Below are positions 11,538-53,006 of a stretch of 64,000 bases of DNA, one piece after another. The notes below the pieces were generated by a model, which ran no database searches, had not been told where the DNA came from, and saw only the letters and a program-made list of their open reading frames with translations. Made by a program: the position numbers and the translations under genes. The first letter of the stretch is position 1; the number at the start of each line of letters is the position of its first letter. This DNA comes from Alphaproteobacteria bacterium (lineage in GTDB: Bacteria; Pseudomonadota; Alphaproteobacteria; JAAXGF01): assembly GCA_965218865.1 (NCBI GenBank), contig CBDCME010000027.1:14991-78990 (forward strand). The letters run 5' to 3'.

Positions 11538-12902
11538 ATGCAGGTAACGCAAACCAGCGAAAAGGAACTTCGGCGCGAATTCAAAATTGTCGTGGACGCC
11601 GGAGATATCGAAGAGAAGCTCATCGCCCGCCTCAAGGAATTGGGTCAAAACGTCCGCATGCCCGGTTTTCGGCCCGGCAAGGTCCCCGTGTCCCTGTTGC
11701 GCAAACAGTACGGCAAGGCGGTGCTTCGCGATGTGATCGACCATTCCGTCGCCGAGGGGTCTCAAAAGGTGATCACCGACGAGGAATTGCAACCCGCCTC
11801 CCAACCTCATGTCACGATCGGGGGATTCGACGAAGGCGCCGACCTCGAATTTTCCGTCGCCGTGGATCTGATGCCGAAGATCGATCCCGGGGACTTTCGC
11901 AAGACAAAGCTTACGCGCTACGCCTCGGAGGTTGGTGACGCCGACGTCGAGGACGTGCTGAAGCGAATGGCGAAGGAAGAGGCCGAGCAGAACCCTGTGA
12001 ACGACCGCCCGGCGCAGGCCGGGGACGTGGTCGTGATCGATTTCATCGGCCGGATCGACGGCGAGGCCTTCGAAGGCGGTGCCGGCAACGATTTTCCCCT
12101 AGAATTGGGTTCGGGCCGATTCATCCCCGGCTTCGAGGACAATCTCGCCGGTTCCCAAACCGGCGAACACAAGACGTTTGAACTTAACTTTCCGGACGGC
12201 TACCCCAAAGAGGAATTGGCTAGGAAAACCGGCACATTTGACGTTGATGTCAAGGAAATCAAGGAATTGGTCCCGGCGACTGTAGATCAAGCGTTCGCCG
12301 AGGCGCACGGACACGCGAACCTCGACGCATTGCACGCGGCCGTAAGGGAACGCATCGGGCGCCAATTCGCCGCGGCCTCGCGCGCAAAGCTCAAGCGCGC
12401 GCTTCTCGATCGCCTCGCCGAGGAACACGACTTTCCGGTTCCGCAAGGTATGGTGGAGCGGGAGTTCGAAACGATTTGGAGCAGGATCACCGAGGAATTG
12501 GATCACCGGAACACCAACCTCGCGGATTCGGGCCAGGACGAAGAGGCGCTCCGCTCCGATTATCGCGGCATCGCCGAGCGCCGTGTGCGGCTCGGACTTT
12601 TGTTGGGCGAAGTTGGACGTATCAATAACATCACGGTTGAGCCGGACGAGATCAAACGCGCGGTTCTGGCCGAGGCGATGGCCTCTCCCGGTAGGGAAAA
12701 GGAGGTGGTCGAGATGTATCGAGACAACGCGGAGGCGTTGCAGGCCCTGAGAGGTCCGATTTTCGAGGACAAGGTCGTCGATTTCATATTGGAAATGGCG
12801 ACCATCGAAGATAAGGAGGTTTCGGCCCAGGAGCTCCTGCGCGATCCCGACGCCGACAACGAAGGCGGTACGGACGAGGGGGAGGCGGCAGCCCCCGTTT
12901 GA
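11538..12902 (+). CDS. tig: trigger factor
   Basis: 454 aa. Shows [14 protein letters not shown] with PPIase and C-terminal domains. The gene order tig-clpP-clpX is conserved. Confidence 0.9.
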
Positions 12903-12958
12903 AGGCGGCCGAGCGAGTTAGCCCGCGAATTGATCGCCCACAAACTGGAAGGTCGGAC

Positions 12959-13600
12959 ATGCGCGACGTGCATCGTACCCGAATGAATTATCTGATCCCG
13001 ATGGTGGTCGAGCAGACCGCGCGCGGAGAACGCTCCTACGACATCTATTCGCGTTTGCTCAAGGAAAGGATCGTTTTCTTGACCGGGCCGGTCGATGACG
13101 CCGTCGCCTCGTTGGTGACGGCGCAGTTCTTGTTTCTCGAATCGGAAAACCCGAGCAAGGATATCTCGCTCTACATCAATTCTCCGGGTGGCCTTGTCAC
13201 CGCCGGCCTCGCGATTTACGATACCATGCAGTACATTCGTTCGCCGGTTTCCACCTTGTGCATTGGCCAAGCGGCATCGATGGGATCTCTTCTCTTGGCC
13301 TCCGGCGCCGCCGGGCAACGGTTCGCGTTGCCCAACGCCCGTATCATGATTCATCAGCCCTCGGGCGGTTATCAGGGACAGGCCTCGGACATCGAGATTC
13401 ACGCCCGCGAAATCCTGTCGTTGCGCGCGCGTTTGAACGAGATCTACGTCAAACACACGGGACAGGCGCTGGACGTCGTCGAGAAAAACATGGAACGTGA
13501 CAAATTCATGACCGGCGAGGCGGCCAAGGAATTCGGTCTGATTGACGAAGTCATCAAGGATCGGCCACAACCAAAGGATGAATCGAAATCCGATGCATGA
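12959..13600 (+). CDS. clpP: ATP-dependent Clp protease proteolytic subunit
   Basis: Shows [29 protein letters not shown]. Start chosen at MRDVH; the longer ORF from 12899 overlaps the tig stop. Confidence 0.85.
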
Positions 13601-13772
13601 CGATTTAACCCTTTATTGAGGGGGAATCGGTTAGTCTTCGCGCGTGGCGGGGCCGCCGTGTGACCTGCCCCAGCGGTTCAAAGTGTGACAGTTGGCATGT
13701 TCGGTGCTTGTATTCACTGTTTGATGGTGACTAACGTTCTGATCGGTAAGAAAGTTCTCTGACGGAGTAACT

Positions 13773-15050
13773 ATGACGAAATCTGCCGGCGGAGATTCCA
13801 AGAATACGCTTTACTGCTCGTTTTGCGGCAAAAGCCAACACGAGGTGCGCAAACTCATTGCGGGCCCGACGGTTTTCATCTGCGATGAGTGTGTCGAGCT
13901 GTGCATGGACATTATTCGAGAGGAGCACAAGAGTGCTCTGGTTAAATCCCGAGATGGTGTGCCGACGCCGGTCGATATTTGCCGGGTGCTCGACGATTAC
14001 GTGATCGGACAGGGCTACGCCAAGCGGGTTCTATCGGTTGCCGTACATAATCATTACAAGCGTCTGAGCCACGGTGCCAAATCGAACGACGTCGAGCTTG
14101 CCAAGTCGAATATTCTGCTCATCGGCCCGACGGGGTGCGGAAAAACGCTCCTGGCCCAGACTTTGGCGCGTATTCTTGACGTCCCCTTCACGATGGCCGA
14201 CGCCACGACCCTGACCGAGGCGGGATATGTCGGCGAGGACGTCGAAAACATCATCCTCAAGCTTCTACAGGCGGCCGATTACAACGTCGAGCGCGCCCAG
14301 CGCGGCATCGTGTATATCGACGAAGTCGACAAGATTTCGCGAAAATCCGACAATCCGTCGATCACGCGGGACGTCTCGGGCGAGGGCGTTCAACAGGCTC
14401 TTCTCAAGATCATGGAAGGGACCATCGCATCGGTGCCACCCCAGGGCGGCCGCAAGCACCCGCAGCAGGAATTCCTTCAGGTCGACACGACCAACATCCT
14501 GTTCGTTTGCGGGGGGGCCTTTTCGGGTCTCGAAAAGATTATATGCTCGCGCGGGCGTGGGACCTCGATCGGTTTCGGAGCCGACGTGCAGGCGCCGGAG
14601 GAACGCAAGACAGGTGACATTTTGCGCGAAATCGAGCCCGAGGACCTCTTGCGTTTCGGGCTTATTCCCGAGTTCGTCGGCCGCCTTCCGGTTATCGCGA
14701 CCCTCGATGTCCTGGACGAGGATGCCTTGGTCGAAATTCTGACCAAACCGAAGAACGCCTTGGTGAAGCAATATCAGAAGCTTTTCGAGATGGAGGACGT
14801 CCATCTCGCGTTTTCCGAGGACGCGTTACGCGGCATCGCCAAAAAGGCGGTCTCGCGCAAAACGGGCGCCCGGGGGCTGCGCTCGATCCTCGAGGCGATC
14901 CTGTTGGATACGATGTTCGATCTCCCGGCCCTGGACGGTGTCCAAGAGGCGGTGATCAACAAGGAAGTCATCGAGGGACGGGCTCAGCCCTTGCTCATCT
15001 ACGCCGATCGGCGCGATGAAGTCGGGCGGACGCCGCGGACCTCGGCATGA
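13773..15050 (+). CDS. clpX: ATP-dependent Clp protease ATP-binding subunit ClpX
   Basis: N-terminal C4 zinc finger and Walker A motif GPTGCGKT. Confidence 0.9.
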
Positions 15051-15069
15051 CGTGGTTCCGACCGTTGGT

Positions 15070-15097
15070 CTTCAAATTTTCTTCGGTATCCCCATAT
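15070..15097 (+). promoter_or_regulatory. putative sigma-32 (RpoH) heat-shock promoter upstream of lon
   Basis: cttcaaa, then a 13-nt spacer, then ccccatat. This matches the CTTGAAA-N13/14-CCCCATNT consensus. It ends about 40 nt upstream of the lon start. Confidence 0.5.
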
Positions 15098-15138
15098 CAA
15101 GTTGATCTTTAACGTCTTTCCCCATGTGAGGTGATCTC

Positions 15139-17544
15139 TTGAGCGATTCGCGCGCGTCCCTTTATCCTGTTTTGCCCCTGCGGGACATCGTCGTCTTTCC
15201 ACATATGATCGTGCCGCTATTCGTCGGCCGTGAAAAATCGGTTCGGGCGCTCGAAGACGTCATGAAAGACGACAAGCAAATCCTATTGGTGGCACAGAAG
15301 GATGCGGCGCAAGACGATCCGGGCACCGATGATATTCATGCCGTCGGCACCGTCGGTACCGTATTGCAGCTTCTCAAATTGCCGGACGGAACGGTCAAGG
15401 TTTTGGTCGAGGGGGGACCGAGGGCCCGAATTCTGCGTTTCGCCGATACCGAGAAATTTTTCCAAGCGTACGCCGAACAAATCGAGGAGGACAACGAGGA
15501 GGTCAGCGAGTTCGAAGCCTTGGCCCGTTCGGTAATTTCCCAGTTCGAACAGTACGTCAAGCTCAACAAGAAGGTCCCGCCCGAGGTCCTGGTGTCGCTC
15601 AATCAGATCGACGATCCGAGCAAACTGGCCGATACGGTGGCGTCGCACCTGACCGTAAAGGTCGCCGAAAAACAGGAGCTACTGGAGATCGCGGCCGTGG
15701 CCGAGCGCCTCGAGCGCGTTTACGCGTTCATGGAAGGCGAGATTGGTGTACTCCAGGTCGAACGCAAGATACGGAGCCGTGTCAAGCGGCAAATGGAGAA
15801 AACACAGCGTGAGTACTACCTAAACGAACAGCTCAAGGCGATTCAAAAGGAACTGGGCAAAACCGAGGACGGACGCGACGAGGCCAGCGAATACGAGGAG
15901 CGAATCAAGAAAACCAAGTTCACGAAGGAAGCGCGCGAAAAAGCGCTCGCCGAGGTGAAGAAACTGCGGACCATGAGTCCAATGTCGGCCGAGGCGACCG
16001 TGGTCCGCAATTACCTGGATTGGCTTCTGACCATCCCGTGGCGCAAGCGGAGCAAGATCAAGAAGGACATCCGATGGGCCGAGCAGGTGCTTGACGTGGA
16101 CCATTACGCGCTTGAAAAGGTCAAGGAACGTATTCTCGAGTATCTCGCCGTCCAGCAAAGGCAGTCCAAGCTCAAGGGGCCGATATTGTGTCTGGTGGGG
16201 GCGCCCGGCGTTGGTAAAACCTCGCTCGGAAAGTCGATCGCTCGGGCGACGGGCCGAAAATTCGTCCGCATGTCGTTGGGCGGCGTCCGCGACGAAGCCG
16301 AGATCCGGGGCCATCGACGCACCTATATCGGTTCGATGCCGGGCAAGATCATCCAGTCGATGAAGAAGGCGAAGACCTCCAATCCCCTTTTCCTGCTCGA
16401 CGAAGTCGACAAACTGGGAGCGGACTGGCGGGGAGATCCGTCGTCCGCGCTGCTCGAGGTCCTCGATCCGGAACAGAATAGTACATTCAACGACCATTAC
16501 CTCGAGGTCGATTACGATCTCTCCGACGTGATGTTCGTGACAACGGCGAATACCCTGCGAATTCCGCAACCGTTGCTCGACCGCATGGAGGTCTTGCGCC
16601 TCTCCGGCTACACGGAGGACGAAAAGATTCAGATCGCCAAGCGCCACCTGATCTCGAAACAGATGGAAGCGCATGGTTTGAAGGAAAAGGAATGGTCGAT
16701 ATCCGATGAGGCCTTACGAGCGTTGATTCGGTTTTACACGCGCGAGGCCGGCGTGCGTAACCTTGAACGCGAGATCGCGAATCTCACGCGAAAGGCGACC
16801 AAGGAGATTTTGTTAGAGGATTTGACCCGAATTCAGGTCACCTGCCGCAACCTCCATAAATACGCCGGCGTCAAACGCTATCGTTACGGGCAGGTTGAAC
16901 TTGAAGACCTGGTCGGCGTGACCACCGGCCTGGCCTGGACGGAGGTCGGGGGTGAGCTTCTTTCCGTGGAAGCGGTGATCGTTCCCGGCCGAGGCCGCAT
17001 TGTCCAGACCGGTAAGCTCGGCGACGTGATGCAGGAATCCGTGCAAGCGGCCAAGAGCTTCGTGCATTCACGCTCGCGGCGATTCGGTATCAAGGCACGG
17101 TTGTTCGAAAAAAATGATATTCACGTTCACGTGCCCGAGGGTGCGACGCCAAAGGATGGTCCCTCGGCGGGCGTCACGATGTGCACCTCGATCGTCTCGG
17201 CGTTGACCGGGGTCCCTGTGCGGCGCACGGTGGCGATGACCGGCGAGATCACGTTACGCGGCCGCGTGTTGCCGATCGGAGGTCTCAAGGAAAAGCTCTT
17301 GGCGGCCCTGCGCGGCCTTTTGAAAACGGTCATCATTCCAAAGGAAAACGAAAAGGATTTGGCCGAGATTCCGGACAACGTGAAGCGCGGGATCGAAATT
17401 ATACCCGTATCAACCGTCGACGAAGTGCTCGATTTTGCCCTTTCCGAAAAACTGGAACCCCTGAAAGAGGGCGAGGATGTGAATGTTGACGAGGTTCGGC
17501 CGGTCCGTGGCGAGGACGAATTGGGGGAGTTGGTTACCCACTGA
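15139..17544 (+). CDS. lon: Lon protease
   Basis: 801 aa with a TTG start. N-terminal substrate domain, AAA+ module and the S-K dyad protease domain. Confidence 0.9.
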   Translation: MSDSRASLYPVLPLRDIVVFPHMIVPLFVGREKSVRALEDVMKDDKQILLVAQKDAAQDDPGTDDIHAVGTVGTVLQLLKLPDGTVKVLVEGGPRARILRFADTEKFFQAYAEQIEEDNEEVSEFEALARSVISQFEQYVKLNKKVPPEVLVSLNQIDDPSKLADTVASHLTVKVAEKQELLEIAAVAERLERVYAFMEGEIGVLQVERKIRSRVKRQMEKTQREYYLNEQLKAIQKELGKTEDGRDEASEYEERIKKTKFTKEAREKALAEVKKLRTMSPMSAEATVVRNYLDWLLTIPWRKRSKIKKDIRWAEQVLDVDHYALEKVKERILEYLAVQQRQSKLKGPILCLVGAPGVGKTSLGKSIARATGRKFVRMSLGGVRDEAEIRGHRRTYIGSMPGKIIQSMKKAKTSNPLFLLDEVDKLGADWRGDPSSALLEVLDPEQNSTFNDHYLEVDYDLSDVMFVTTANTLRIPQPLLDRMEVLRLSGYTEDEKIQIAKRHLISKQMEAHGLKEKEWSISDEALRALIRFYTREAGVRNLEREIANLTRKATKEILLEDLTRIQVTCRNLHKYAGVKRYRYGQVELEDLVGVTTGLAWTEVGGELLSVEAVIVPGRGRIVQTGKLGDVMQESVQAAKSFVHSRSRRFGIKARLFEKNDIHVHVPEGATPKDGPSAGVTMCTSIVSALTGVPVRRTVAMTGEITLRGRVLPIGGLKEKLLAALRGLLKTVIIPKENEKDLAEIPDNVKRGIEIIPVSTVDEVLDFALSEKLEPLKEGEDVNVDEVRPVRGEDELGELVTH

Positions 17545-43128: not shown

Positions 43129-44292
43129 TTGTCGATGCTGGCGGATAGCGACGTGTTCGTGGAATCGTCCTCAGACGACCCCATACTCTTGACCCCGGGG
43201 CCCCTGGCGACGTCGCCGGCGACCAAGCGGGCCATGATGCACGACTGGGGTTCGCGCGATCGCGAAGTCGTCTCGATGACCGCGCGCGCGCGCGCGCGTC
43301 TGTTGGCCCTGGCCGGGGCCACCGAAAATCATGTTTGCGTCCCGCTGCAAGGGAGCGGAACCTTCGCGATCGAAGCGGCGATCGGGACCCTGGTGCCGCG
43401 CGGCGGCAAGCTCCTGGTTCCGGTCAACGGCGCCTACGGACAGCGTATGGTGCGGATCGCCGAGGTCTTGGGGCTGGCCCACGTGGCGACGACGACACCC
43501 GAAAACTTGGCCCTCGATCCGGAGCACGTCGGCGCCGTTCTCGATTCGGATCCGGCGATCGGCGACGTGGCCGCGGTCCATTGCGAAACCAGCAGCGGGG
43601 TTTTGAATCCGGTGGCCGAGATCGCGCGTCTCGTCGACAAACGCGGAAAGCGGTTGTTGGTCGACGCGATGAGCGCCTTCGGGGCCATCCCTCTCGACGC
43701 GGCCGAGGTTCCCTTCGATTCCATGGTGTCCTCGTCGAGCAAGTGTCTCGAGGGCGTGCCCGGCCTGGCCTTCGTCATCGCGCGACGCGATTCATTGGCG
43801 AAGCGCGGCGGAAACGCGCGTTCGCTCAGTCTCGACCTCCATGATCAGTGGCGCACTCTCGAACGCACGGGCGAGTGGCGGTTTACGCCGCCGACCCAGG
43901 TATTGGCGGCCCTCGACCAGGCCTTGACCGAGTTGGACGAGGAGGGCGGTATCGCCGCCCGCGGCGGGCGTTACCGGAGGAACCGCGATCGCTTGGTAAA
44001 AGGCATGCGCGAAATGGGATTCGCAACCCTCCTTGCGGATGACGTCCAGGCGCCGATCATCGTTACTTTCCTCGCGCCCGCCGATCCGAACTGGCGATTC
44101 GAGACTTTCTTCGCCGGATTACGGCGGCGAAACTACGTCATTTATCCCGGCAAACTGACGGCGGCGGAGAGTTTCCGCGTCGGCTGCATCGGTCATCTCG
44201 GCAACGACGCGATTCCGGGCCTGATCGAGGCTGTCCGGGCGACAATCGATGAAATGGGTCTTGTCAATCGCGGTCCGGCGCCGGGCCAATGA
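43129..44292 (+). CDS. phnW: class-V aminotransferase, PhnW-like (2-aminoethylphosphonate--pyruvate transaminase)
   Basis: N-terminal LLTPGPLATSPATKRAMMHDWGSRD signature. Confidence 0.6.
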   Translation: MSMLADSDVFVESSSDDPILLTPGPLATSPATKRAMMHDWGSRDREVVSMTARARARLLALAGATENHVCVPLQGSGTFAIEAAIGTLVPRGGKLLVPVNGAYGQRMVRIAEVLGLAHVATTTPENLALDPEHVGAVLDSDPAIGDVAAVHCETSSGVLNPVAEIARLVDKRGKRLLVDAMSAFGAIPLDAAEVPFDSMVSSSSKCLEGVPGLAFVIARRDSLAKRGGNARSLSLDLHDQWRTLERTGEWRFTPPTQVLAALDQALTELDEEGGIAARGGRYRRNRDRLVKGMREMGFATLLADDVQAPIIVTFLAPADPNWRFETFFAGLRRRNYVIYPGKLTAAESFRVGCIGHLGNDAIPGLIEAVRATIDEMGLVNRGPAPGQ

Positions 44293-44306
44293 TCAACGGC
44301 AATCGA

Positions 44307-44676
44307 TCACTTGTTCGCGTCACGCCGCTTTTTCGCGACCGCATCCGCCGATAACGGATCGGCGCCCTCGAATTCCAACTCGAGCGGTTTCTCGTCCGTC
44401 GCCTCGTTCAGGGAGGTTCCCTTGGCTGCTCGCAAGAGCCATCTGCGGGCCTGGTCGGTGTCCTTTTTGACGCCTTGTCCGATGTGGTACATCACCCCGA
44501 CGAATACCTGGGCCTCAACATTCCCCGTCTGCGCAAGAGGCAGCAAGATTCGGAACGCGGTCGCGTAATCCTGGACCAGGTACGGACACCCCAGCCTGAA
44601 AATCCGCCCGCGCCGGAAGCACGCAGACGACCGTCAAGACTATCGCGAGCGCGATCCGCCGTATCGTCGATTTCAT
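44307..44676 (-). pseudogene. small exported Sel1-repeat protein disrupted by a 1-nt frameshift near 44590
   Basis: The signal peptide plus DFQAGV is in one frame. PYLVQDYATAFRILLPLAQTGNVEAQVFVGVMYHIGQGV continues in another frame. Confidence 0.55.
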
Positions 44677-44853
44677 GGCCACTCCAGCGCCGTTCCTTCC
44701 CCTGTTGAATAGTCCGAAAACCCCCTGGCCGCAACCGGGTTACCACCGATAACGATTGGGGGTTCGTTCGGGGTGGTGGCAACTTTATCGTTGGTCTGAT
44801 ATGAGCACAACAGTGTGCTCCCTGGCACACCGTCCCTTTCGACGAACCCGCAT

Positions 44854-45102
44854 TCAGCGCGCGTCATCGAAGAATTGAAACATAGCGGATGCAGGAAGAG
44901 TGATCGGCGGGGCGCCAACCTGTCGAATGAGATATGGCCCCCGGCCAAACCGACGCACGGCTTCGGTCGCGGCGTTGTCGAGTGAATCGTACGCACCGAT
45001 GAATTCACCATCATGGAACACGACCCACTTGCCATGATGATGTTGCTCAAGCTCTTCGCGCTTGGCGTCGTACGCCGCGATGTCTTTGTCTAGTTCCGCC
45101 AT
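44854..45102 (-). CDS. small hypothetical protein of 82 aa
   Basis: Compact ORF with sequence HGKWVVFHDGEFIGAYDSLDNAATEAVRRFG. No function assigned. Confidence 0.4.
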   Translation of the reverse strand: MAELDKDIAAYDAKREELEQHHHGKWVVFHDGEFIGAYDSLDNAATEAVRRFGRGPYLIRQVGAPPITLPASAMFQFFDDAR

Positions 45103-45429
45103 CGGAGAATTCCCCTACCGCAAAAACCTAAGCATAGGAAGCATGTGTTGCACAACAATGAACGGCAGCCCCCATCGAGGTGTCCAATTATTTTGTGTAA
45201 TGATACCCGCCACGGCATGCTCCCACAAGTTGCGCAGTGATGACGGTGGACATGACCGTGCGACGAAAGCTGGGTTCGGGGGACGCGATACTTGATCTTT
45301 TATGCCCACCGCTCGTCAGCCGTGAGGATCAGATGGACCTGGTTGGACAAGCTCGGCGTCCGCATCTCTCCTTTCGGGGCCTACTCGGAGTTCACTCGCG
45401 ACCCGCTGGGTTGCTCAGCCGCCCAAGGC

Positions 45430-45653
45430 GGCCTTTGTCGCGGGGCTTCGATCCAGCCGGTACCCCAACCAAACCGCCCGCCAGCACCCAACCAACAATT
45501 ATCCGCGTGGAACCTGCCTCCACTGGCATTCCGCGCCCTCGTGGCGCACTAAAGAGGCGAAGTCTCAAGGGGTAACGGTCCTGGCAACCCGAAAGCCGAT
45601 GAAGCTGTAGCGGACGGAGGCGACGTCCCCGAGCCGAATTGTACGTCTCCAGC
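45430..45653 (-). pseudogene. decayed partial copy of the 3' end of a DGR-type FGE target gene
   Basis: Only 29 codons (45653-45564) remain open. They end ...SFIGFRVARTVTP*, which is 75-90% identical at the nucleotide level to the 3' end of the caspase-FGE gene. The adjoining 45430-45548 is homologous to 50790-50935. Confidence 0.55.
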
Positions 45654-45886
45654 TTTATCGAGGATTCCGATATTTCCGGCGGCCGGAACATCCCCTCGAC
45701 CCGGCACTCGGTAGTTCGTGTTACTGGGCGGCCATGCCTATATAGTCGCCCGTGAAGAACGCGTAAGCGGCTGATGTTGGTAGCTCTTTCGGTTTGGCGA
45801 AGTAATCGGATTTGCAAGAAAACGGGTTTTGGGCCTGAAAAGCTTGCGATTTGAAATAATTGATTTTGGGGATTCCCTTCCGTTGC

Positions 45887-47338
45887 GGAACGTGATTCTC
45901 TGCTCCCGTCGATTGGGATTGGAGAACTGTGATGAAGCCATCGCGCAAGGTGTCATCGGGAATAGAGGACCTGTTCCGCTCGCGGTTCGAAAACATCATC
46001 AACCTGCGCCACGAGTTGGTGGTGTTGGGGGGCCGGATCGCGTGGACTTTCTTCGACGAGACCTATGAAGCCTTGTATTCGGAGGAGGGTCGGCCGGGGG
46101 TCCCGACGCGGTTGATGGTTGGGCTGCACATCCTCAAGCATATGTTCGATCTCTCGGATGAGGAGGTCTGCGAGCGCTGGGTCTACGACCCATACTTCCA
46201 GTGCTTCTGCGGCGAAGAGTACTTTCAGCATGAGCTGCCCATGGAGCGCTCGTCGATGACCCGGTGGCGGGACCGGATCGGTCCGGAAGGTTTGGAGAAG
46301 GTATTCCAGGAGAGCCTGGCCGTGGCCCACCGGGTGGGGGCGCTGCGGGAGAAGGACCTCGAGCGGGTGATGGTGGACACCACCGTACAAGAGAAGGCGA
46401 TTGCCTTTCCGACCGCCGCCAAACTGATGCAACGAGCCCGCGAGCGGCTGGTGCGACTGGCACGGGAGCACGGCATTGCCCTGCGTCAGTCCTATACCCG
46501 CCTGGGCAAGAGGGCGTTGATCATGCAAGGCCGCTACCGCCATGCCAAACAGCACAAGCGGGCCAACAAGGCCCTGCGCAAGCTCAAGACCTATCTCGGG
46601 CGCACCGTCCGCGACATCCGCCGCAAGACGGCCCAGGAGGAGAGCCTACGGGATACCTTCCGCCGCCCCTTGTGGCTGGCCGAGCGGGTGTCGACCCAGA
46701 AGCGGCGCGACCCCTTGCCCAAGGTCTATTCGCTCCACGCGCCCGAGGTCGAATGCATCGGCAAAGGGAAGGCGCACAAGCCGTACGAGTTCGGCTGCAA
46801 GGTCTCCGTGGCGGCGACCAATTCCCGCCCCCCCGGCGGCCAGTTCGTCGCCCACGTCAAGGCCTTCCACGGCAATCCCTATGATGGCCACACCTTGAGG
46901 CAGGTGATCGAAGAGATGGAACGCTGGACGGGGATATCGGCCGAGCGCATCTATGTCGACAAGGGATACCAGGGCCACTATTACCCCAACAAACACCGCG
47001 TCTTTAGATCAGGCCAGAAACGCGGCATCACGCCGACGATCAAGAAGGAGCTCAGGCGGCGCTCCGCCGTCGAGGCCGTGATCGGACATCTCAAGAGCGA
47101 TGGCAGGCTGGGGCGCAACTTCCTCAAAGGCCGCGACGGCGACAAGATCAACGCCATCCTCGCCGGCGCCGGCTACAACTACCGCCTTGTCCTCAAATGG
47201 CTGAGGCGTTTGTTTGTCCAAATCCTGGCCGCGCTCCTCAGCGACATCTCGCACCCCACCGCAAACCCAATCGCCGCTTCAGATTGAAATCAGGGTTCTT
47301 CACGGACGACTCTATAAATGCGCCCCGCAAGGATGTGG
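45887..47338 (+). mobile_element. IS5-family insertion sequence of about 1.45 kb
   Basis: Imperfect terminal inverted repeats: GGGATTCCCTTCCGTTGCGG at about 45889 and the complement of AATCCCACATCCTTGCGG at about 47319. Boundaries are good to within +/-10 bp. Confidence 0.6.
45929..47287 (+). CDS. IS5-family transposase (DDE), intact, 452 aa
   Basis: Shows DTTVQEKAIAFPT, YEFGCKVS, YVDKGYQG and AGYNYRLVL. Confidence 0.75.
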   Translation: MMKPSRKVSSGIEDLFRSRFENIINLRHELVVLGGRIAWTFFDETYEALYSEEGRPGVPTRLMVGLHILKHMFDLSDEEVCERWVYDPYFQCFCGEEYFQHELPMERSSMTRWRDRIGPEGLEKVFQESLAVAHRVGALREKDLERVMVDTTVQEKAIAFPTAAKLMQRARERLVRLAREHGIALRQSYTRLGKRALIMQGRYRHAKQHKRANKALRKLKTYLGRTVRDIRRKTAQEESLRDTFRRPLWLAERVSTQKRRDPLPKVYSLHAPEVECIGKGKAHKPYEFGCKVSVAATNSRPPGGQFVAHVKAFHGNPYDGHTLRQVIEEMERWTGISAERIYVDKGYQGHYYPNKHRVFRSGQKRGITPTIKKELRRRSAVEAVIGHLKSDGRLGRNFLKGRDGDKINAILAGAGYNYRLVLKWLRRLFVQILAALLSDISHPTANPIAASD

Positions 47339-47403
47339 GATTTGTGCTCCCAGATCGGGAACAAATCACTTGATCCCATTTTGGGATCGGAGTAGGGTGG
47401 GTC

Positions 47404-47712
47404 ATGAGGATTATCGCCCGAAGGACGCTCAAAGTGTTCTGGGAGCGGCATCCCCTCGCCGAGCAACCCTTGAAGGCGTGGTTCAGGTTTGCAAAGGCTG
47501 CCCTTTGGGATTCACCGGCGGCCGTGAGGACGGACTACCGAAGCGCGAGCATCCTCGAAGATAACGGGGTTTGCTTCAACATCGGCGGAAACAGGTTCCG
47601 CCTGGTCGTGAAGATAAATTACCCATACCGAATTGTTTACATTCGGTTTGTCGGTACCCATGCCGAGTACGACAGGGTGGACGCGACGAAGGTTTGGGAG
47701 TTCCGACGATGA
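47404..47712 (+). CDS. higB: type II toxin HigB (RelE/ParE superfamily)
   Basis: Shows FNIGGNRFRLVVKINYPYRIVYIRFVGTHAEYD. It is upstream of an HTH antitoxin and overlaps it by 4 bp. Confidence 0.75.
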   Translation: MRIIARRTLKVFWERHPLAEQPLKAWFRFAKAALWDSPAAVRTDYRSASILEDNGVCFNIGGNRFRLVVKINYPYRIVYIRFVGTHAEYDRVDATKVWEFRR

Positions 47713-48092
47713 AAATAATGCCGATCAAGGATGAAGGGGATTACGCGGCCGCGGTGGTCGAAATCGACGGCCTGATGGACGCCGAACCGGACACCCCCGA
47801 GGGCGACCGTCTCGACGTCCTGACCACGCTTGTCGCGGATTGGGAGGAGAACCACCACGCGATCGAGGAACCGGACCCGATCGAGGCCATCGTTCACCGC
47901 ATGGAAGCCCTTGGTCTGGAACGCAAGGACCTGGAGCCGATGATCGGCACCCGGGCCCGGGTCTCCGAGGTTCTCGGCCGCAAGCGCCCGCTGACGATCA
48001 AGATGATCCGGCGACTCAACAAGGAATTGCGAATTTCGGCGGACGTGCTGATCCGTGCCTACGACGTTGAGGAATCCACCCCTTTAGCATGA
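47709..48092 (+). CDS. higA: HigA-type antitoxin with a C-terminal XRE-family HTH
   Basis: Shows LEPMIGTRARVSEVLGRKRPLTIKMIRRLNKELRISADVLI. Confidence 0.7.
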   Translation: MKIMPIKDEGDYAAAVVEIDGLMDAEPDTPEGDRLDVLTTLVADWEENHHAIEEPDPIEAIVHRMEALGLERKDLEPMIGTRARVSEVLGRKRPLTIKMIRRLNKELRISADVLIRAYDVEESTPLA

Positions 48093-48261
48093 CAGCGCCT
48101 TCAAGGGCCTCCAACTCCGTGGCCTGGATGCGATCCCCGAGAAGGAATCTCTGGCTCCTCGGAAACTTCTCGACCGTTGGGACGAGCCAGAGAATAAACA
48201 CGTACATTTGCTCCGACGCCGGGCCAGTGCGCCGGGACCCGTCGGCCAGCTTTCCATCCAT
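48016..48261 (-). pseudogene. truncated Avd-like (DGR accessory variability determinant, four-helix-bundle) gene
   Basis: YVFILWLVPTVEKFPRSQRFLLGDRIQATELEALEG aligns with the Avd helix-1/2 region. The last ~25 codons are read from the antisense of the higA 3' end. The gene lies just downstream of the VR-bearing gene on the same strand. Confidence 0.4.
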
Positions 48262-48286
48262 CGCTTCAATATCCCAAAAAATTTCG

Positions 48287-48303
48287 CTGGGGCTCCGCCC
48301 CAG
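48287..48303 (-). other. GC-rich hairpin, ctggggc-tcc-gccccag, about 25 nt downstream of the VR-bearing gene's stop
   Basis: 7-bp stem with a 3-nt loop. The position matches the hairpin that follows a DGR variable region. Confidence 0.4.
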
Positions 48304-48328
48304 TTCCAAGAGGTTAAGATTTAAAGTG

Positions 48329-50686
48329 TCAAGGAGTAACAGTCCTGGCAACCCGGAAGCCGATGTCGTCGCTTCGGTTGGAGGTGTCGTCCCCGGCCCG
48401 ATTCGCGGAACGTACGACCCTCGGAGTGCCGTCCCAGGAGCCGCCGCGCAGAACACGGCGAGAACAATTTCCCTTTGTCCAAGCCGAGACATTTGATGGT
48501 GCACCCCTATACGAGTCGTTCCAGCAATCCCCGACCCATGCCCACACGTTGCCCAGCACGTCATGCAAACCAAACCCATTGGCCTGAAATCTCCCCACCG
48601 GTGCCGTCTGACCATAGCCATCGCGACAATCGTGATGCACCCATGAAAATCCGTTTTCCGATTTACTGGTTTGGTCATGTACGTTCGCGTAGCCGCAGGC
48701 ACCGCTTGAATTGCTTCCCCAATAACGGGCTGCCGTCGTCCTGGCCCGCGCCGCGTATTCCCATTCCGCTTCGCTCGGCAGACGGTATTCCTTCCCCGTC
48801 TTTCCGCTCAGCCAACGGACGTAGGCTTTCGCGTCTTGCCAATTGACGCAGGCAACAGGATGGGAATCGCTCTGTGAATATCCCGGATCGCGCCAGTTCC
48901 GGGACGAATCTTCTTGCCATTCGCCAGCTTGATAAATCCGACAACCGTCGCTCGTCTTGTGGCCCGTGGCGCGGACAAAAGCTTCAAACCCCCCTCGCGT
49001 CACCTCGTACTTGCCCAAGGCAAAGGCTCGGGGAATCCGAACCTCGTGCTGAGGTCCCTCGTCGTCGTAACGCCCCTTCTCGCTTGCCGGAGACCCCATC
49101 GTGAAATTGCCCGCCGGGATCACCCCCATCTCTGGGCACTCGGGGCAGTCCTTAAAGGTGGAACCAGGTTCCTTCGTTCCCGGATAAATCCCCACCGCCG
49201 GCTGGGCCGGGGTTTCCGGCGCCGGCCTTTGCGGTACGGTCACCGCCGCGTACTGCTTGGCCCGGGCTCGGGCCAGAGAGGCAAATCTCCCCTTGGGGTA
49301 GGTTTCCAAATAAGCCTTGTAGTCCGCCGCGCTCGTGCTGTTCTTGACCGAATCCCAGAAAGCGATCTCGGCGGCAAGCGGATCGAGCTTCGCCGGTTCG
49401 GCCGGCGCCGGCGGCTCTGCCAGCGGTTCCCCCAGGAGCTTTGCGTAAACGTAAGCCGGTTTGCCTTCGTCCCCCTCGACCCGGTACCACTCCGCGTCCT
49501 TGACCTTACCGGTCACGGTTACGTGTTCGCCGGCCGACAGCTTCCCCACCTTCTCGTAGTCCGTCGACGGACCCGCCCGCAGGTTCACCGTCTTCACCGC
49601 CACCAGTTCGGTATCCATCGGGGCCACCACGATCTTCGGTGGGACAACCACGGCGACCTGCTTGTCCTCTTTCAGGCCGTCGAGGTGGCTCCTCGCGAGA
49701 GAGGCAAAGGCGCCGTCGGGATATTGAGCCAGATATCCCTCGAAATCGCGTGCCCTCCCACTGGCCTTGACCGACTGCCAATACTCCAATTCCATCGCCC
49801 GTTCGTCGAAGGCCGGCGGCGCCGGGGATATAGCGTCGCGCGGGATCGCCACCGTTCCCTTGATTTCGATGGGTATGAACAGAAAATCGCCGCCTTCGTG
49901 CGCCGCCATGCGGATATCCGAGTATTGGGGCGTTTGATCGGCGTTCATGACCACTGACTGGCGTACCTCGCGGAAAAGCTCCTGGCCGTCGAGGATGGTG
50001 TCGTTTTCGCGCAACGCCGTAAGAAACGCGGCGGCGAACACCGAATGCCCGCCGCTGCCGGCGTCCACCACCGGCTCCAGTCCGCCTGAAACCAACGCCG
50101 TGCGCGCCCGCTTGGCCGCCATGCGCCGCAGGTATTCGCTTCGATCGTCGCCCGTTCGAAGCTTGCCCGTTTCGGTCCGAACCAAGGTTCCGGAGTAACA
50201 CGAATCGGCCACCACCAGGACGTGCCGAGCCGTCATCGCCTTGAGGTGGCGGGTGATGGCGCGGACCGGAATCCAGTGGGTATCGCTTTCAGGCTCCGCG
50301 TCCACCGGCTGCCAGTAGCCGGTGCCGGTCTCGCGATCCAAGGTGCCGTGGCCAGCGTAGTAGATCAAAAGCCGGTCGTCCGGCGTCAAATTCCCGCGGT
50401 AACGGTTTATTTCCTCCAGAATGTCCGCGCGGGTGGCGTTGAGGATGAGTTTGACATCATAGTCGTACTTGAGCTTGAGCAGTTCGGCCACGGCGGCGGC
50501 GTCGCTGACCGCTGTTTTCAGCCGCGTCATATGGGCGTATTCGTTGTTGCCGATGACCAGCGCGTGGTAGTCACCGGCCACGTCGGCGATGACCGACGCG
50601 TCGCCGGTGGTTTCCACGACGGCGTGCCCCGCCACGAGCATCGCGCCTAGCGTCAGCGGAATGAAGGTCTGCCGGAATCGCCTCAC
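48329..50686 (-). CDS. exported caspase (peptidase C14)-SH3b-FGE/SUMF1 fusion protein with a DGR-type variable C-terminus
   Basis: Signal peptide. Caspase His/Cys dyad in YYAGHG and VVADSCYSG. Two YWQSVK/FWDSVK repeats. FGE fold with RLPSEAEWEYAAR. C-terminus reads VLRGGSW-DGT-PRVVRSANR-AGDDTS-NRS-DD-IGFRVAR. Confidence 0.8.
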   Translation of the reverse strand: MRRFRQTFIPLTLGAMLVAGHAVVETTGDASVIADVAGDYHALVIGNNEYAHMTRLKTAVSDAAAVAELLKLKYDYDVKLILNATRADILEEINRYRGNLTPDDRLLIYYAGHGTLDRETGTGYWQPVDAEPESDTHWIPVRAITRHLKAMTARHVLVVADSCYSGTLVRTETGKLRTGDDRSEYLRRMAAKRARTALVSGGLEPVVDAGSGGHSVFAAAFLTALRENDTILDGQELFREVRQSVVMNADQTPQYSDIRMAAHEGGDFLFIPIEIKGTVAIPRDAISPAPPAFDERAMELEYWQSVKASGRARDFEGYLAQYPDGAFASLARSHLDGLKEDKQVAVVVPPKIVVAPMDTELVAVKTVNLRAGPSTDYEKVGKLSAGEHVTVTGKVKDAEWYRVEGDEGKPAYVYAKLLGEPLAEPPAPAEPAKLDPLAAEIAFWDSVKNSTSAADYKAYLETYPKGRFASLARARAKQYAAVTVPQRPAPETPAQPAVGIYPGTKEPGSTFKDCPECPEMGVIPAGNFTMGSPASEKGRYDDEGPQHEVRIPRAFALGKYEVTRGGFEAFVRATGHKTSDGCRIYQAGEWQEDSSRNWRDPGYSQSDSHPVACVNWQDAKAYVRWLSGKTGKEYRLPSEAEWEYAARARTTAARYWGSNSSGACGYANVHDQTSKSENGFSWVHHDCRDGYGQTAPVGRFQANGFGLHDVLGNVWAWVGDCWNDSYRGAPSNVSAWTKGNCSRRVLRGGSWDGTPRVVRSANRAGDDTSNRSDDIGFRVARTVTP

Positions 50687-50755
50687 CGAGGTCCCCCTTT
50701 CCTGACATTATAGCAAGGAGGAGGGTTATGTGCCGGCAAATAGAAAATCCCGCGC

Positions 50756-51025
50756 TCAGCGGAGGTGGTGGTTGTCACCGCCGATCACGGGGCCAATCGG
50801 AATCGTCCACTGTTGCGGCGGGGCTTCGATCCAGCCGCTTGACCGACCAATCCCCCCGCCAGCACCCCCCCATAAATTGTCCGCTTGGAAGTTCACACGA
50901 CTGGCATTCCAAGTCCCCTTGGCGCACTCTTTGTCGTCTCCGTTCGTCAACGACCTGCACCACGGTTTCAGGTCACAAACGATGGCGCGCCCGCCGGTGA
51001 GAAACCGAGCCGCCGCCGTACCCAT
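50756..51025 (-). CDS. small Cys/Gly-rich hypothetical protein
   Basis: The ORF is open to 51100; start chosen at an internal Met. Its C-terminal half (..NAS..GAGGG..GWIEAP) has a decayed homologue at 45430-45548. Confidence 0.3.
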   Translation of the reverse strand: MGTAAARFLTGGRAIVCDLKPWCRSLTNGDDKECAKGTWNASRVNFQADNLWGGAGGGIGRSSGWIEAPPQQWTIPIGPVIGGDNHHLR

Positions 51026-51102
51026 GACGTCAGGTGAACGTTTCGTTGTATAGTGTTGTACGAATTGATTTTTATGGTATTGTGATGGTGTTGTTCTCAA
51101 GG

Positions 51103-51993
51103 ATGGTAGGAGCAGTCGTGGGGGGAATCGGCGACAGATTGGCGGGGGCGGCCCTTGCCATCGTCATCGCGATCGCGGCTTGGCCCGGGGTCGCCGGGGC
51201 CGGTGATTGGCGGGATCGCAAGACGATCGAGGCCGTCTTGCACCCGGAAAGATATACGGCCTTCGTCGGTATCGAGGATCCCGATGCCTTCGAGCGCGCC
51301 TGGGAAACCAACAAACCATGGGTTCTGGCGAATTTGGCCCACGCCGCTTATTTCGACGAGGACAAATTGTGTGCCTTGCTGGCGCCGTTCCTGCGCGCCG
51401 CGAATCCCTGCGAGCCGACCGCGACACCGGGGCCGCCACGGCTTCACGTCTATTCCAACGACGGATCCCAAGGTTATCTTGCCGTCTGGCCGGACAAGGC
51501 GGTCCTTGTTTTCCGCGGTACCGAGGTCCACAGCCACACCGACCTCCTCGCCGACGCCGATTTTATCCTTCAAGAACCGCTCGGGGAGGCTCGGGTGCAT
51601 CGGGGCTATCTCCGCGAACTCAACAAAATATGGCCGAATGTCTCCCGTGACTTGGAAACCTACCGCGAACTTCCGCCGATCCCGATCTGGGTTACGGGCC
51701 ACAGCATGGGCGCGGCGATGGCGACCCTCGCCGGGATGCGGGGGATTCCCTTCGAAGCGATCATCACTTTCGGAGAACCGAGAGTGGGACTCAACATCGC
51801 CTCGGCGTTTATGGCGAAACGCCACGTCCGCTACGTCAACGGGTACGACCCGGCCATCCACTATCCCTTCCCGATCGGCTATGAACACCATGGAGAAAAA
51901 GTCGAAATCGTCGATCCGGACGGGCCCAGAATATTCCATGACCACGCGATCGTTTATTATTCCGCGATTCTCGGGCGGGGGATGAACGAATGA
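51103..51993 (+). CDS. exported class-3 lipase (alpha/beta hydrolase)
   Basis: GHSMGAAMATL nucleophile elbow and a signal peptide. Start is at ATG 51103 or GTG 51118. Confidence 0.7.
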   Translation: MVGAVVGGIGDRLAGAALAIVIAIAAWPGVAGAGDWRDRKTIEAVLHPERYTAFVGIEDPDAFERAWETNKPWVLANLAHAAYFDEDKLCALLAPFLRAANPCEPTATPGPPRLHVYSNDGSQGYLAVWPDKAVLVFRGTEVHSHTDLLADADFILQEPLGEARVHRGYLRELNKIWPNVSRDLETYRELPPIPIWVTGHSMGAAMATLAGMRGIPFEAIITFGEPRVGLNIASAFMAKRHVRYVNGYDPAIHYPFPIGYEHHGEKVEIVDPDGPRIFHDHAIVYYSAILGRGMNE

Positions 51994-53006
51994 CCCCATT
52001 TCGCGCCGCTTCGGCCAATTCGCGCCATGGAAGAATCCCTTCGACGATCGTTTGGATCGTTTTCGTGTTTTCCTGGCTCGCCGCGACGGGGACCCTCGCG
52101 GCCGAACGCGATTTTTCCGTCTGGCTCGCCGAATTTCGCCAGGAAGCCACCCAGGCGGGGATTTCCCGCGCCACGCTCGAGGCGGCGTTCGCGGACACCA
52201 TGCCGATCCCGAGGATCGTCGAACTGGATCGGAAACAACCGGAATTTACCCAAACCTTTTCCGAGTACATGGCATTGCGGGTCACCGACGCCCTGGTGGA
52301 AGAGGGGCGCCAAGCGCTGCGCGCCAATCGCGACGCGCTCGAGGAAATCGGCCGCGAATACGGTGTCCAACCGCGATTCATCGTCGCCTTGTGGGGGGTT
52401 GAAACTCGGTACGGCACCTATACTGGGGGGTTTCCGGTGATCGACGCTCTCGCCACCTTGGCTTTCGACGCCCGCCGCGCCAGCTATTTCCGGGGCGAGC
52501 TCTTGAACGCCCTGAAGATTCTCGACGCCGGCCACATCTCGGTCGCCGATATGAAGGGTTCCTGGGCCGGGGCCATGGGCCAGAGTCAATTCATGCCGTC
52601 CACTTTTCTCCGTTCCGCGGTCGATCACGACGGCGACGGCCGCCGCGACATCTGGAATACGCCGGCCGACGTCTTCGCCTCGGCCGCCAATTACCTCACC
52701 CGGCTGGGTTGGCGTGACGATCAAACCTGGGGTCGTGAGGTCCGTCTCCCGGCGGATTTCGACCCCGAGTTGGTGGGCCACGAGACCATAAAACCGCTTG
52801 GGGATTGGCAAGCCCTAGGGGTTCGCCGAGCGGATGGTAGCAATCTCCCACGGCGCCAACTCGAAGCCTCGGTCATTCTGCCGGGCGGGCAGGGAGGACC
52901 CGCCTACGTCGTGTACGATAACTACCGCCGAATCCGAAAATGGAATCGCTCCGATTATTTTGCCATGTCCGTGGGAAGACTGTCGGATTTAGTGGGCCAA
53001 TACTAG
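51990..53006 (+). CDS. mltB: lytic murein transglycosylase (MltB family)
   Basis: Conserved MltB lysozyme-like core ..GAMGQSQFMPSTF... Confidence 0.75.
   Translation: MTPFRAASANSRHGRIPSTIVWIVFVFSWLAATGTLAAERDFSVWLAEFRQEATQAGISRATLEAAFADTMPIPRIVELDRKQPEFTQTFSEYMALRVTDALVEEGRQALRANRDALEEIGREYGVQPRFIVALWGVETRYGTYTGGFPVIDALATLAFDARRASYFRGELLNALKILDAGHISVADMKGSWAGAMGQSQFMPSTFLRSAVDHDGDGRRDIWNTPADVFASAANYLTRLGWRDDQTWGREVRLPADFDPELVGHETIKPLGDWQALGVRRADGSNLPRRQLEASVILPGGQGGPAYVVYDNYRRIRKWNRSDYFAMSVGRLSDLVGQY

Follow-up and report, generated by a model that had tools for sequence, protein, structure and literature searches.

Within a 64,000-nt stretch of an alphaproteobacterial contig (CBDCME010000027.1, assembly GCA_965218865.1; the whole stretch is here called the window), a gene for a fusion of a caspase-type peptidase, an SH3b domain and an FGE/CLec domain ends in what appears to be the variable region (VR1) of a diversity-generating retroelement (DGR). 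The most probable explanation is that this DGR decayed locally and left its variable region (VR) frozen. Local decay is favored by the combination of a VR that is identical in three assemblies, a truncated avd gene directly downstream of the target gene, the stump of a second variable region (VR2) and the insertion of a toxin-antitoxin (TA) pair and an insertion sequence (IS). Local decay, an active target served by a DGR elsewhere in the genome, and a gene with no relation to DGRs are mutually exclusive readings, and each is weighed below where the evidence bears on it. Feature coordinates are collected in Table 1.

A caspase-FGE fusion with a DGR-type variable region

Pfam recovered on one protein all three domains that the original prediction had read from the sequence: Peptidase_C14 (PF00656; residues 41-257, positions 49916-50566; E = 9e-24), SH3_3 for the SH3b domain (residues 366-418, positions 49433-49591) and FGE-sulfatase for the CLec domain (PF03781; residues 517-781, positions 48344-49138; E = 8.5e-67). 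Two repeats of about 35 residues, of the form YxxYLxxYPxGxFASLAR, lie on either side of the SH3b domain. The His-Cys dyad of caspases is present (His113 in YYAGHG, Cys163 in DSCYSG), and by these motifs the protein would belong to peptidase family C14 (caspase/orthocaspase) with its dyad intact. The protein had also been called exported, and its N-terminus fits this, with a MRRFRQ n-region followed by hydrophobic residues 7-19 and then AGHA; about residues 1-22 (50621-50686) look like a Sec signal peptide, which remains putative as it was recognized from these features and not by a predictor.

The C-terminal domain found its best solved-structure match in PvdO (5hha; E = 5e-62) and aligned over the VR-bearing part with TvpA, a Treponema DGR variable protein (2y3c; E = 1.5e-8). 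Against the NCBIfam PvdO model the protein scored 252, with a cutoff of 500. Its C-terminus reads RVLRGGSWDGTPRVVRSANRAGDDTSNRSDDIGFRVARTVTP, which we take to be without the cysteine pair of catalytic FGE. With this fold, a VR at the extreme C-terminus and linkage to DGR parts, the protein tests as an FGE/CLec-class DGR target. The wider caspase-FGE family is very large, with at least 3,328 matching proteins at E ≤ 1e-20 among the candidates scored.

Related loci were collected with two DNA patterns, a gapped one for the VR scaffold, which yielded 38 genomic loci, and one for the Avd N-terminus, which yielded 14 metagenomic loci. Two of the loci hold intact DGRs, in the order VR-avd-RT-TR in L037 and VR-TR-avd-RT in L024 (RT, reverse transcriptase; TR, template repeat). 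L037 has an AAC-rich TR from which its VR differs at adenines. In a metagenome-assembled genome (MAG) of the Hyphomicrobiaceae (L006), a target with signal peptide, Peptidase_C14 and FGE domain has a VR with 14 substitutions relative to a TR that lies 258 nt downstream, and every one of them falls on a TR adenine.

The claim that the window gene ends in a variable region of the DGR type held up against these loci. The conserved 3' end of VR1, ATCGGCTTCCGGGTTGCCAGGACTGTTACTCCTTGA, is a segment resembling an initiation of mutagenic homing (IMH) element and extends through the stop codon; taken with the downstream spacer, it shares about 82% identity with the corresponding VR end of L037, an intact DGR, and the end of VR2 does so too. 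A hairpin had been noted about 25 nt after the stop, and it lies there, at 48303-48287 (the complement strand had been quoted). It is followed by a run of T, scores as terminator-like and occupies a position that fits a DGR target hairpin. At the equivalent position and distance after the stop in L012, L033 and L037, the stem sequences differ and the pairing is kept. In all four loci 5 or 6 T follow the hairpin directly, and with this trailing T-run it could, besides being the DGR target hairpin, end transcription of the target gene ahead of avd as an intrinsic terminator. The codons that had been presumed to derive from Asn do coincide with AAC/AAT codons in the TRs of L037 and L006, where VR1 has GAC, GGC, ACT, GTC, GCC, GAC, AGC and GAC. 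By analogy with these relatives, VR1 would have been shaped by adenine-specific mutagenesis of a TR.

A truncated avd gene, an absent core and a second variable region

The next gene on the same strand had been read as an Avd gene that runs into higA after about 60 codons, and it is indeed a truncated avd. The 81-residue open reading frame (ORF; 48019-48261, minus strand; stop codon 48016-48018) matches the NCBIfam model DivGenRetAVD (NF033474) over residues 17-57 and profile positions 5-45 of 104 (E = 8.8e-8); its 32.4 bits fall below the cutoff of 80 because the stump is truncated. The Avd of L012, which comes from an uncultured alphaproteobacterial MAG, is 75% identical to it where 49 residues align (residues 8-56 of the L012 protein; E = 5.6e-22). 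Full-length relatives in L037 and L024 adjoin DGR-type RTs, and the L037 Avd reaches 117.8 bits against the same cutoff of 80. The break was correctly foreseen and falls after about 57 codons: the DNA alignment loses Avd homology at about 48093-48097, exactly where the convergent gene 47709-48092 has its stop codon (48090-48092), and the frame continues past this point antisense to that gene. The name higA for the latter is assigned only by its position beside a HigB_toxin gene. A second, weak Avd-like tblastn match at 13370-13588 on the minus strand (E = 0.001) lies on the strand opposite clpP (12899-13600) and was discarded as spurious.

The core of the element is missing from the window, as had been noted. 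A tblastn search with five DGR RTs (from L001, L008, L020, L024 and L037) gave no match below E = 0.3 in the window, and the same 64 kb hold no TR for VR1: under a rule by which every VR1 base must be met by the same base or by A, the best non-self site has 35 mismatches in 109, and there is no AAY-rich stretch. The locus is thus not a complete or autonomous DGR, having neither RT, TR nor intact Avd in the window. The further statement that no template repeat lay in reach was right. Overlooked was a VR-like remnant at 45560-45648, the sole repeat of VR1 that blastn found in the window.

This remnant, VR2, is the end of a second target gene whose upstream part has been lost or frameshifted. At 45560-45637 it forms a direct repeat with 78% identity to VR1 over 78 nt, found by both blastn and a repeat finder. 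Read on the minus strand, it ends in RLGDVASVRYSFIGFRVARTVTP before its stop codon, where VR1 has RAGDDTSNRSDDIGFRVARTVTP before its own. Of 17 differences between the two, 13 fall within eight variable codons (36 nt), 12 of them at codon position 1 or 2: GAC/GTC, ACC/GCC, AAC/GTC, AGC/TAC, GAC/AGC, GAC/TTC and GCC/CTC, the thirteenth being CGA/CGC. The remaining 42 aligned nt hold 4 differences, which are silent or lie past the stop. Two VRs that derive from a single TR would differ in this way, and the gene pair of L054, described below, shows the same pattern. VR2 was also considered as the missing TR and ruled out, for it is not adenine-rich and has a VR-type end (AGGACYGTTACYCCTTGA), not the TR-type end of L037. 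It is instead what remains of another target gene, written from a template of the same kind. VR1 and VR2 are separated by the avd stump, higBA and the IS5 element.

Table 1. Positions of the DGR remnants, insertions and stump-adjoining TA loci (window coordinates unless a related locus is named)
Feature	Position	Strand	Details
Target gene	48329..50686	-	785-aa ORF
VR1	48329..48448	-	RGGSW scaffold 48434-48448; variable codons D752 to D774 = 48365-48433
GC hairpin	48287..48303	-	CTGGGGC-GGA-GCCCCAG; 25 nt past target stop; 7-bp stem, 3-nt loop
avd stump	48093..48261	-	first ~57 codons; starts 67 nt after target stop
Convergent TA pair	47404..48092	+	higB and higA-like gene
higB	47404-47712	+	HigB_toxin PF09907, E = 6e-29
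higA-like gene	47709-48092	+	weak HTH_3 match, E = 0.16; overlaps higB stop by 4 nt
IS5-family insertion sequence	45739..47316	+	transposase 45929-47287; NF033578, 525 bits (cutoff 275)
VR2 remnant	45560..45648	-	last ~25-30 codons and first nt of 3' flank of second FGE/CLec target
Group II intron 5' fragment	45391..45549	-	GTGCG start, 15 nt past VR2 stop codon
Group II intron 5' fragment, shorter copy	50813..50927	-	GTGCG start, ~125 nt upstream of target start codon
Stump-adjoining TA locus, window	47404-48100		higBA
Stump-adjoining TA locus, L033	3235-4060		vapBC
Stump-adjoining TA locus, L012	2808-3722		DUF4160/DUF2442
Stump-adjoining TA locus, L045	502-1469		vapBC
Stump-adjoining TA locus, L047	758-1418		hicBA-like

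Among the related loci, L054 carries two genes for signal peptide, C14 and FGE proteins around an Avd stump (residues 8-75), and their VRs differ in the variable codons within nearly identical flanks. By layout it appears to be the closest analogue of the window, except that its second gene has stayed whole. RT-less loci with an Avd stump are L012 and L033 from the genome scan and 5 of the 14 metagenomic loci (L042, L045, L047, L048 and L054). From these loci, decay to an avd stump appears to recur, and stumps seem frequent in this DGR lineage. The RT lineage itself is very abundant in Hyphomicrobiales-type MAGs, with at least 120 relatives at 73% identity or more.

Several side observations concern the same lineage. 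The decayed loci L012 (1370-2743; TIR_2, E = 6e-11) and L033 (1214-3229) have a TIR-FGE target in place of a caspase-FGE one. L033 is further decayed than the window, with a frameshift inside the VR of its target and a CAG-to-TAG stop in its avd stump. The TR of L037 sits downstream of its RT, and in this lineage the RT frame often reads on through the TR (RTs of about 417 residues: P0190, P0206, P0214, P0232, P0243; L037 921-2420), which gives the RT proteins a spurious C-terminal match to FGE-sulfatase (PF03781).

An alternative hypothesis is that the gene is no DGR target at all, but an ordinary caspase-PvdO/FGE fusion bearing the generic signature of its fold, with a chance Avd-like ORF beside it. 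The RGGSW scaffold, which had been offered as a sign of a DGR, is in fact generic to FGE/PvdO-like domains: the motif RGGSW...R...GFRVAR is common to PvdO/FGE and thousands of caspase-FGE proteins, and two caspase-FGE homologues (P0019, P0031) have no DGR parts within 8 kb. The DGR assignment is therefore based on the avd stump together with the homologous VR end and hairpin, and not on the motif. Against a chance neighborhood stand the match of the stump to the Avd equivalog model and its close identity to a real Avd, the homology of a non-coding spacer and hairpin to the VR flanks of intact DGRs, the codon-position-specific differences of the second VR, and the same architecture in a DGR context in L006 and L054. 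We regard this alternative as scarcely credible, and it appears already contradicted by these sequence comparisons.

Frozen variant or remote target

The original prediction left two alternatives, a remote target of a DGR located elsewhere or a decayed DGR, and with RT and TR absent locally these are the right pair. Comparison of strains had been suggested as a way to tell them apart. The target protein represents a 90% identity cluster with members from three contigs (145,782, 83,373 and 259,788 nt; P0001, P0121 and P0123). The VR is identical in the three assemblies, without variability at the codons presumed to derive from Asn, and one assembly carries the substitution E316A elsewhere in the protein; the comparison was made at the level of assemblies. 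On the 259,788-nt contig, the gene is split into two ORFs (P0122 and P0123) with small tandem duplications (TGHKT, VAC) and an unchanged VR, which may be an assembly error or a disrupted allele.

An active remote target would draw RT, Avd and TR in trans from another site of the genome, where a complete DGR of this lineage would reside, and the local avd stump would be a leftover of a duplicated copy. Non-adjacent targets are known from 45 of 372 DGRs, and in 10 of these DGRs targets lie more than 100 kb away (PMC5758913), and incomplete loci are diversified in trans in Thiohalocapsa (PMC10907252). The abundance of the RT lineage in Hyphomicrobiales-type MAGs also speaks for a donor. Against it, three assemblies share the VR, including one whose protein is substituted at another site, the VR was assembled through without a break on long contigs (83-260 kb), and neither TR nor RT lies within the 64 kb. 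We consider service in trans unlikely.

Some points nonetheless weigh against local decay. Nothing is broken in the target ORF, the conserved VR 3' end or the hairpin, as would be expected of a remote target that is still serviced. The three assemblies may stem from related samples, and a consensus assembly hides variants within a population. The absence of RT and TR covers the 64-kb window, and a DGR elsewhere in the genome could possibly service VR1. Finally, adenine-specific mutagenesis of VR1 itself is drawn from analogy with related DGRs.

Taking these points together, we favor the decayed DGR and propose the following course. Adenine-mutagenic reverse transcription of a TR, with homing of the cDNA via the VR end and hairpin, is established for Bordetella phage BPP-1 and Treponema. 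In the intact ancestor, the RT would likewise have copied an adenine-rich TR with adenine-specific errors, and the cDNA, with Avd, would have replaced the VR, guided by its conserved 3' end and the GC hairpin. The last ~110 nt of the target gene would be the VR of such a DGR, from an abundant alphaproteobacterial lineage. The core was then presumably deleted here, with avd cut at the higBA junction and RT and TR gone, and a second target gene would have shrunk to its last ~80-90 nt, the VR2 remnant. IS5 and the group II intron fragments would have arrived afterwards in the decayed locus. As the target gene is intact, it most likely still makes one frozen variant of a formerly hypervariable binding protease of the envelope or periplasm. 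We infer that the mature protein is exported, that its CLec domain binds a ligand via the former VR surface (residues ~752-774), that the caspase domain acts as a protease effector, and that no DGR elsewhere services VR1. Such a protein would parallel the sensor-plus-peptidase conflict proteins among known DGR targets (PMC10907252, PMC7517822), placed here in the envelope and not in the cytoplasm.

Whether IS5 caused the loss of the core through an IS-mediated deletion concerns the cause of decay only and overlaps with local decay as such. The element is located between the avd stump and the VR2 remnant, and IS elements shape DGR decay in Thiohalocapsa (PMC10907252), both of which would suit this scenario. 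Its 22-nt inverted repeats match at 20 of 22 positions (91% complementary), with TATA at both ends, and two complete repeats with the same TATA at each end fit a simple insertion upstream of higB. The avd breakpoint is the stop codon of the higA-like gene, not an IS terminus, and lies 776 nt from the end of IS5, so that the element looks like a later simple insertion and not the cause of the deletion. A causal role for IS5 is improbable.

The stump of avd meets a TA pair in other loci as well. In 5 of 8 RT-less loci with truncated avd, a TA pair of differing family follows the stump directly (Table 1), and in the window, L033 and L012 the avd homology gives out where a TA gene in convergent orientation has its stop codon, or no more than a few nt from it. 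In intact loci, too, TA pairs lie right after the RT/TR (DUF4160/DUF2442 in L049, MNT/HepT in L050). We speculate, with no statistical control, that the neighborhood of these DGRs is rich in TA pairs and that deletions removing the core reach up to, and not into, an addictive pair. A broader hypothesis, which we hold doubtful, is that exported caspase-SH3b-CLec proteins are recurrent DGR-diversified sensor-proteases in Alphaproteobacteria. Their DGRs would repeatedly lose the core up to TA pairs, which would act as barriers or replacing cassettes, or one master DGR per genome would service the targets in trans. If so, repeated loss of the retroelement core would freeze a receptor, and Avd stumps beside TA pairs hint at a rule for DGR decay that is testable genome-wide.

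Two fragments of group II introns bracket the locus. They are 78% identical over ~111-116 nt, and Rfam assigned the longer (45391-45549) to RF02003 (group-II-D1D4-4) with 55.5 bits against a gathering cutoff (GA) of 49, over the full model. The 5' GUGYG and the domain I structure are present; no match to domain V or Intron_gpII at E ≤ 1 was found in 43500-52000, and there is no intron RT ORF. By these features, the pieces appear to be fragments only. The motif was also considered as a DGR-associated RNA, and Rfam found none in 13 related loci, so that we regard it as unrelated intron debris of this genome.

Mobile-element debris of ~6.7 kb (44300-51030) surrounds the DGR remnant. An aminotransferase gene borders this patch on one side and cell-envelope genes on the other, the latter being a gene with a Lipase_3 domain (Pfam) and lytic transglycosylase, RlpA and PBP5-like genes recognized by eye. 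Base composition was considered as well and gave no sign of a foreign origin of the segment. At 11538-17544, tig, clpP, clpX and lon, also recognized by eye from their translations, indicate that the window belongs to the chromosomal core. The intron fragment is separated from the aminotransferase gene by a short Sel1-repeat ORF and an 82-residue ORF (44307-44546 and 44854-45102, both on the minus strand). In L006, a caspase-C-terminal/Sel1-repeat protein adjoins the caspase-FGE target, and the Sel1 piece of the window may be a further remnant of the same gene neighborhood.

Relation to known DGR systems

On the favored reading, the locus is a clean, well-delimited case of DGR death, which has spared the target, its recognition end and the hairpin and has removed RT, TR and most of avd's conserved length. 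It indicates that the caspase-FGE fusions with signal peptides, a very large uncharacterized family, include genuine DGR targets outside cyanobacteria. If the receptor is frozen, such genes would be natural snapshots of a selected binding specificity; if the VR is serviced in trans, annotation pipelines that demand a nearby RT would miss such targets. Current understanding of DGRs is not overturned.

A caspase-type DGR target is less new than the original prediction implied. Orthocaspase N-terminal domains are published from cyanobacterial DGR variable proteins (Vallota-Eastman et al. 2020, PMC7517822); caspase-like/CHAT and TIR targets, incomplete loci, activity in trans and transposon-driven decay from Thiohalocapsa and relatives (Dore et al. 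2024, PMC10907252); and remote DGR targets have been catalogued (PMC5758913). L006 adds a further caspase-type target. Orthocaspase targets, remote targets and incomplete loci being already known, an exported alphaproteobacterial variant with an SH3b domain extends the known range modestly. Of the side results, the most interesting is how common avd stumps, often abutting TA pairs, are in this lineage.

Like the window protein, the cyanobacterial orthocaspase targets join an N-terminal caspase-family peptidase to a C-terminal VR of the CLec/FGE type, and remote variable proteins and paralogues occur among them (PMC7517822). Those targets are of a cytoplasmic signaling type and belong to intact DGRs of filamentous cyanobacteria, whereas the window protein is alphaproteobacterial, has a putative signal peptide and an SH3b domain, and has lost its DGR core. 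Thiohalocapsa PB-PSB1 offers the nearest parallel in decay, in that targets are kept without RT and/or TR, transposons and pseudogenes shape the loci, and CLec targets come with effector domains of the caspase-like (CHAT), TIR and peptidase kinds (PMC10907252). In that strain, reads showed diversification at most incomplete loci (PMC10907252), in contrast to the window VR, which shows none among three assemblies; the lineage and the window's combination of an exported C14, SH3b and FGE protein differ as well.

TvpA of Treponema denticola (2Y3C), the prototype of FGE-type CLec DGR targets, matches the fold over the VR part. Both it and, putatively, the window protein are exported, and in both the VR stretch is without the catalytic cysteine pair of true FGE. 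Unlike the window protein, TvpA is a lipoprotein that lacks a protease domain and belongs to an intact DGR with several remote targets. PvdO (5HHA), the best structural match of the C-terminal domain, is likewise an FGE-fold protein with a non-FGE function and is periplasmic, but it has a single domain, serves pyoverdine maturation as an enzyme or accessory factor, and is no DGR target. The DGR of Bordetella phage BPP-1 (mtd-avd-TR-brt) shares with the window a VR at the 3' end of the target gene, an IMH, a downstream GC hairpin and an avd beside the target. Its target has the Mtd-type fold and the element is phage-borne, whereas the window locus is of the FGE type, chromosomal and bereft of TR and RT, and the intact relatives of the window follow the gene orders of L037 and L024 instead of that of BPP-1.

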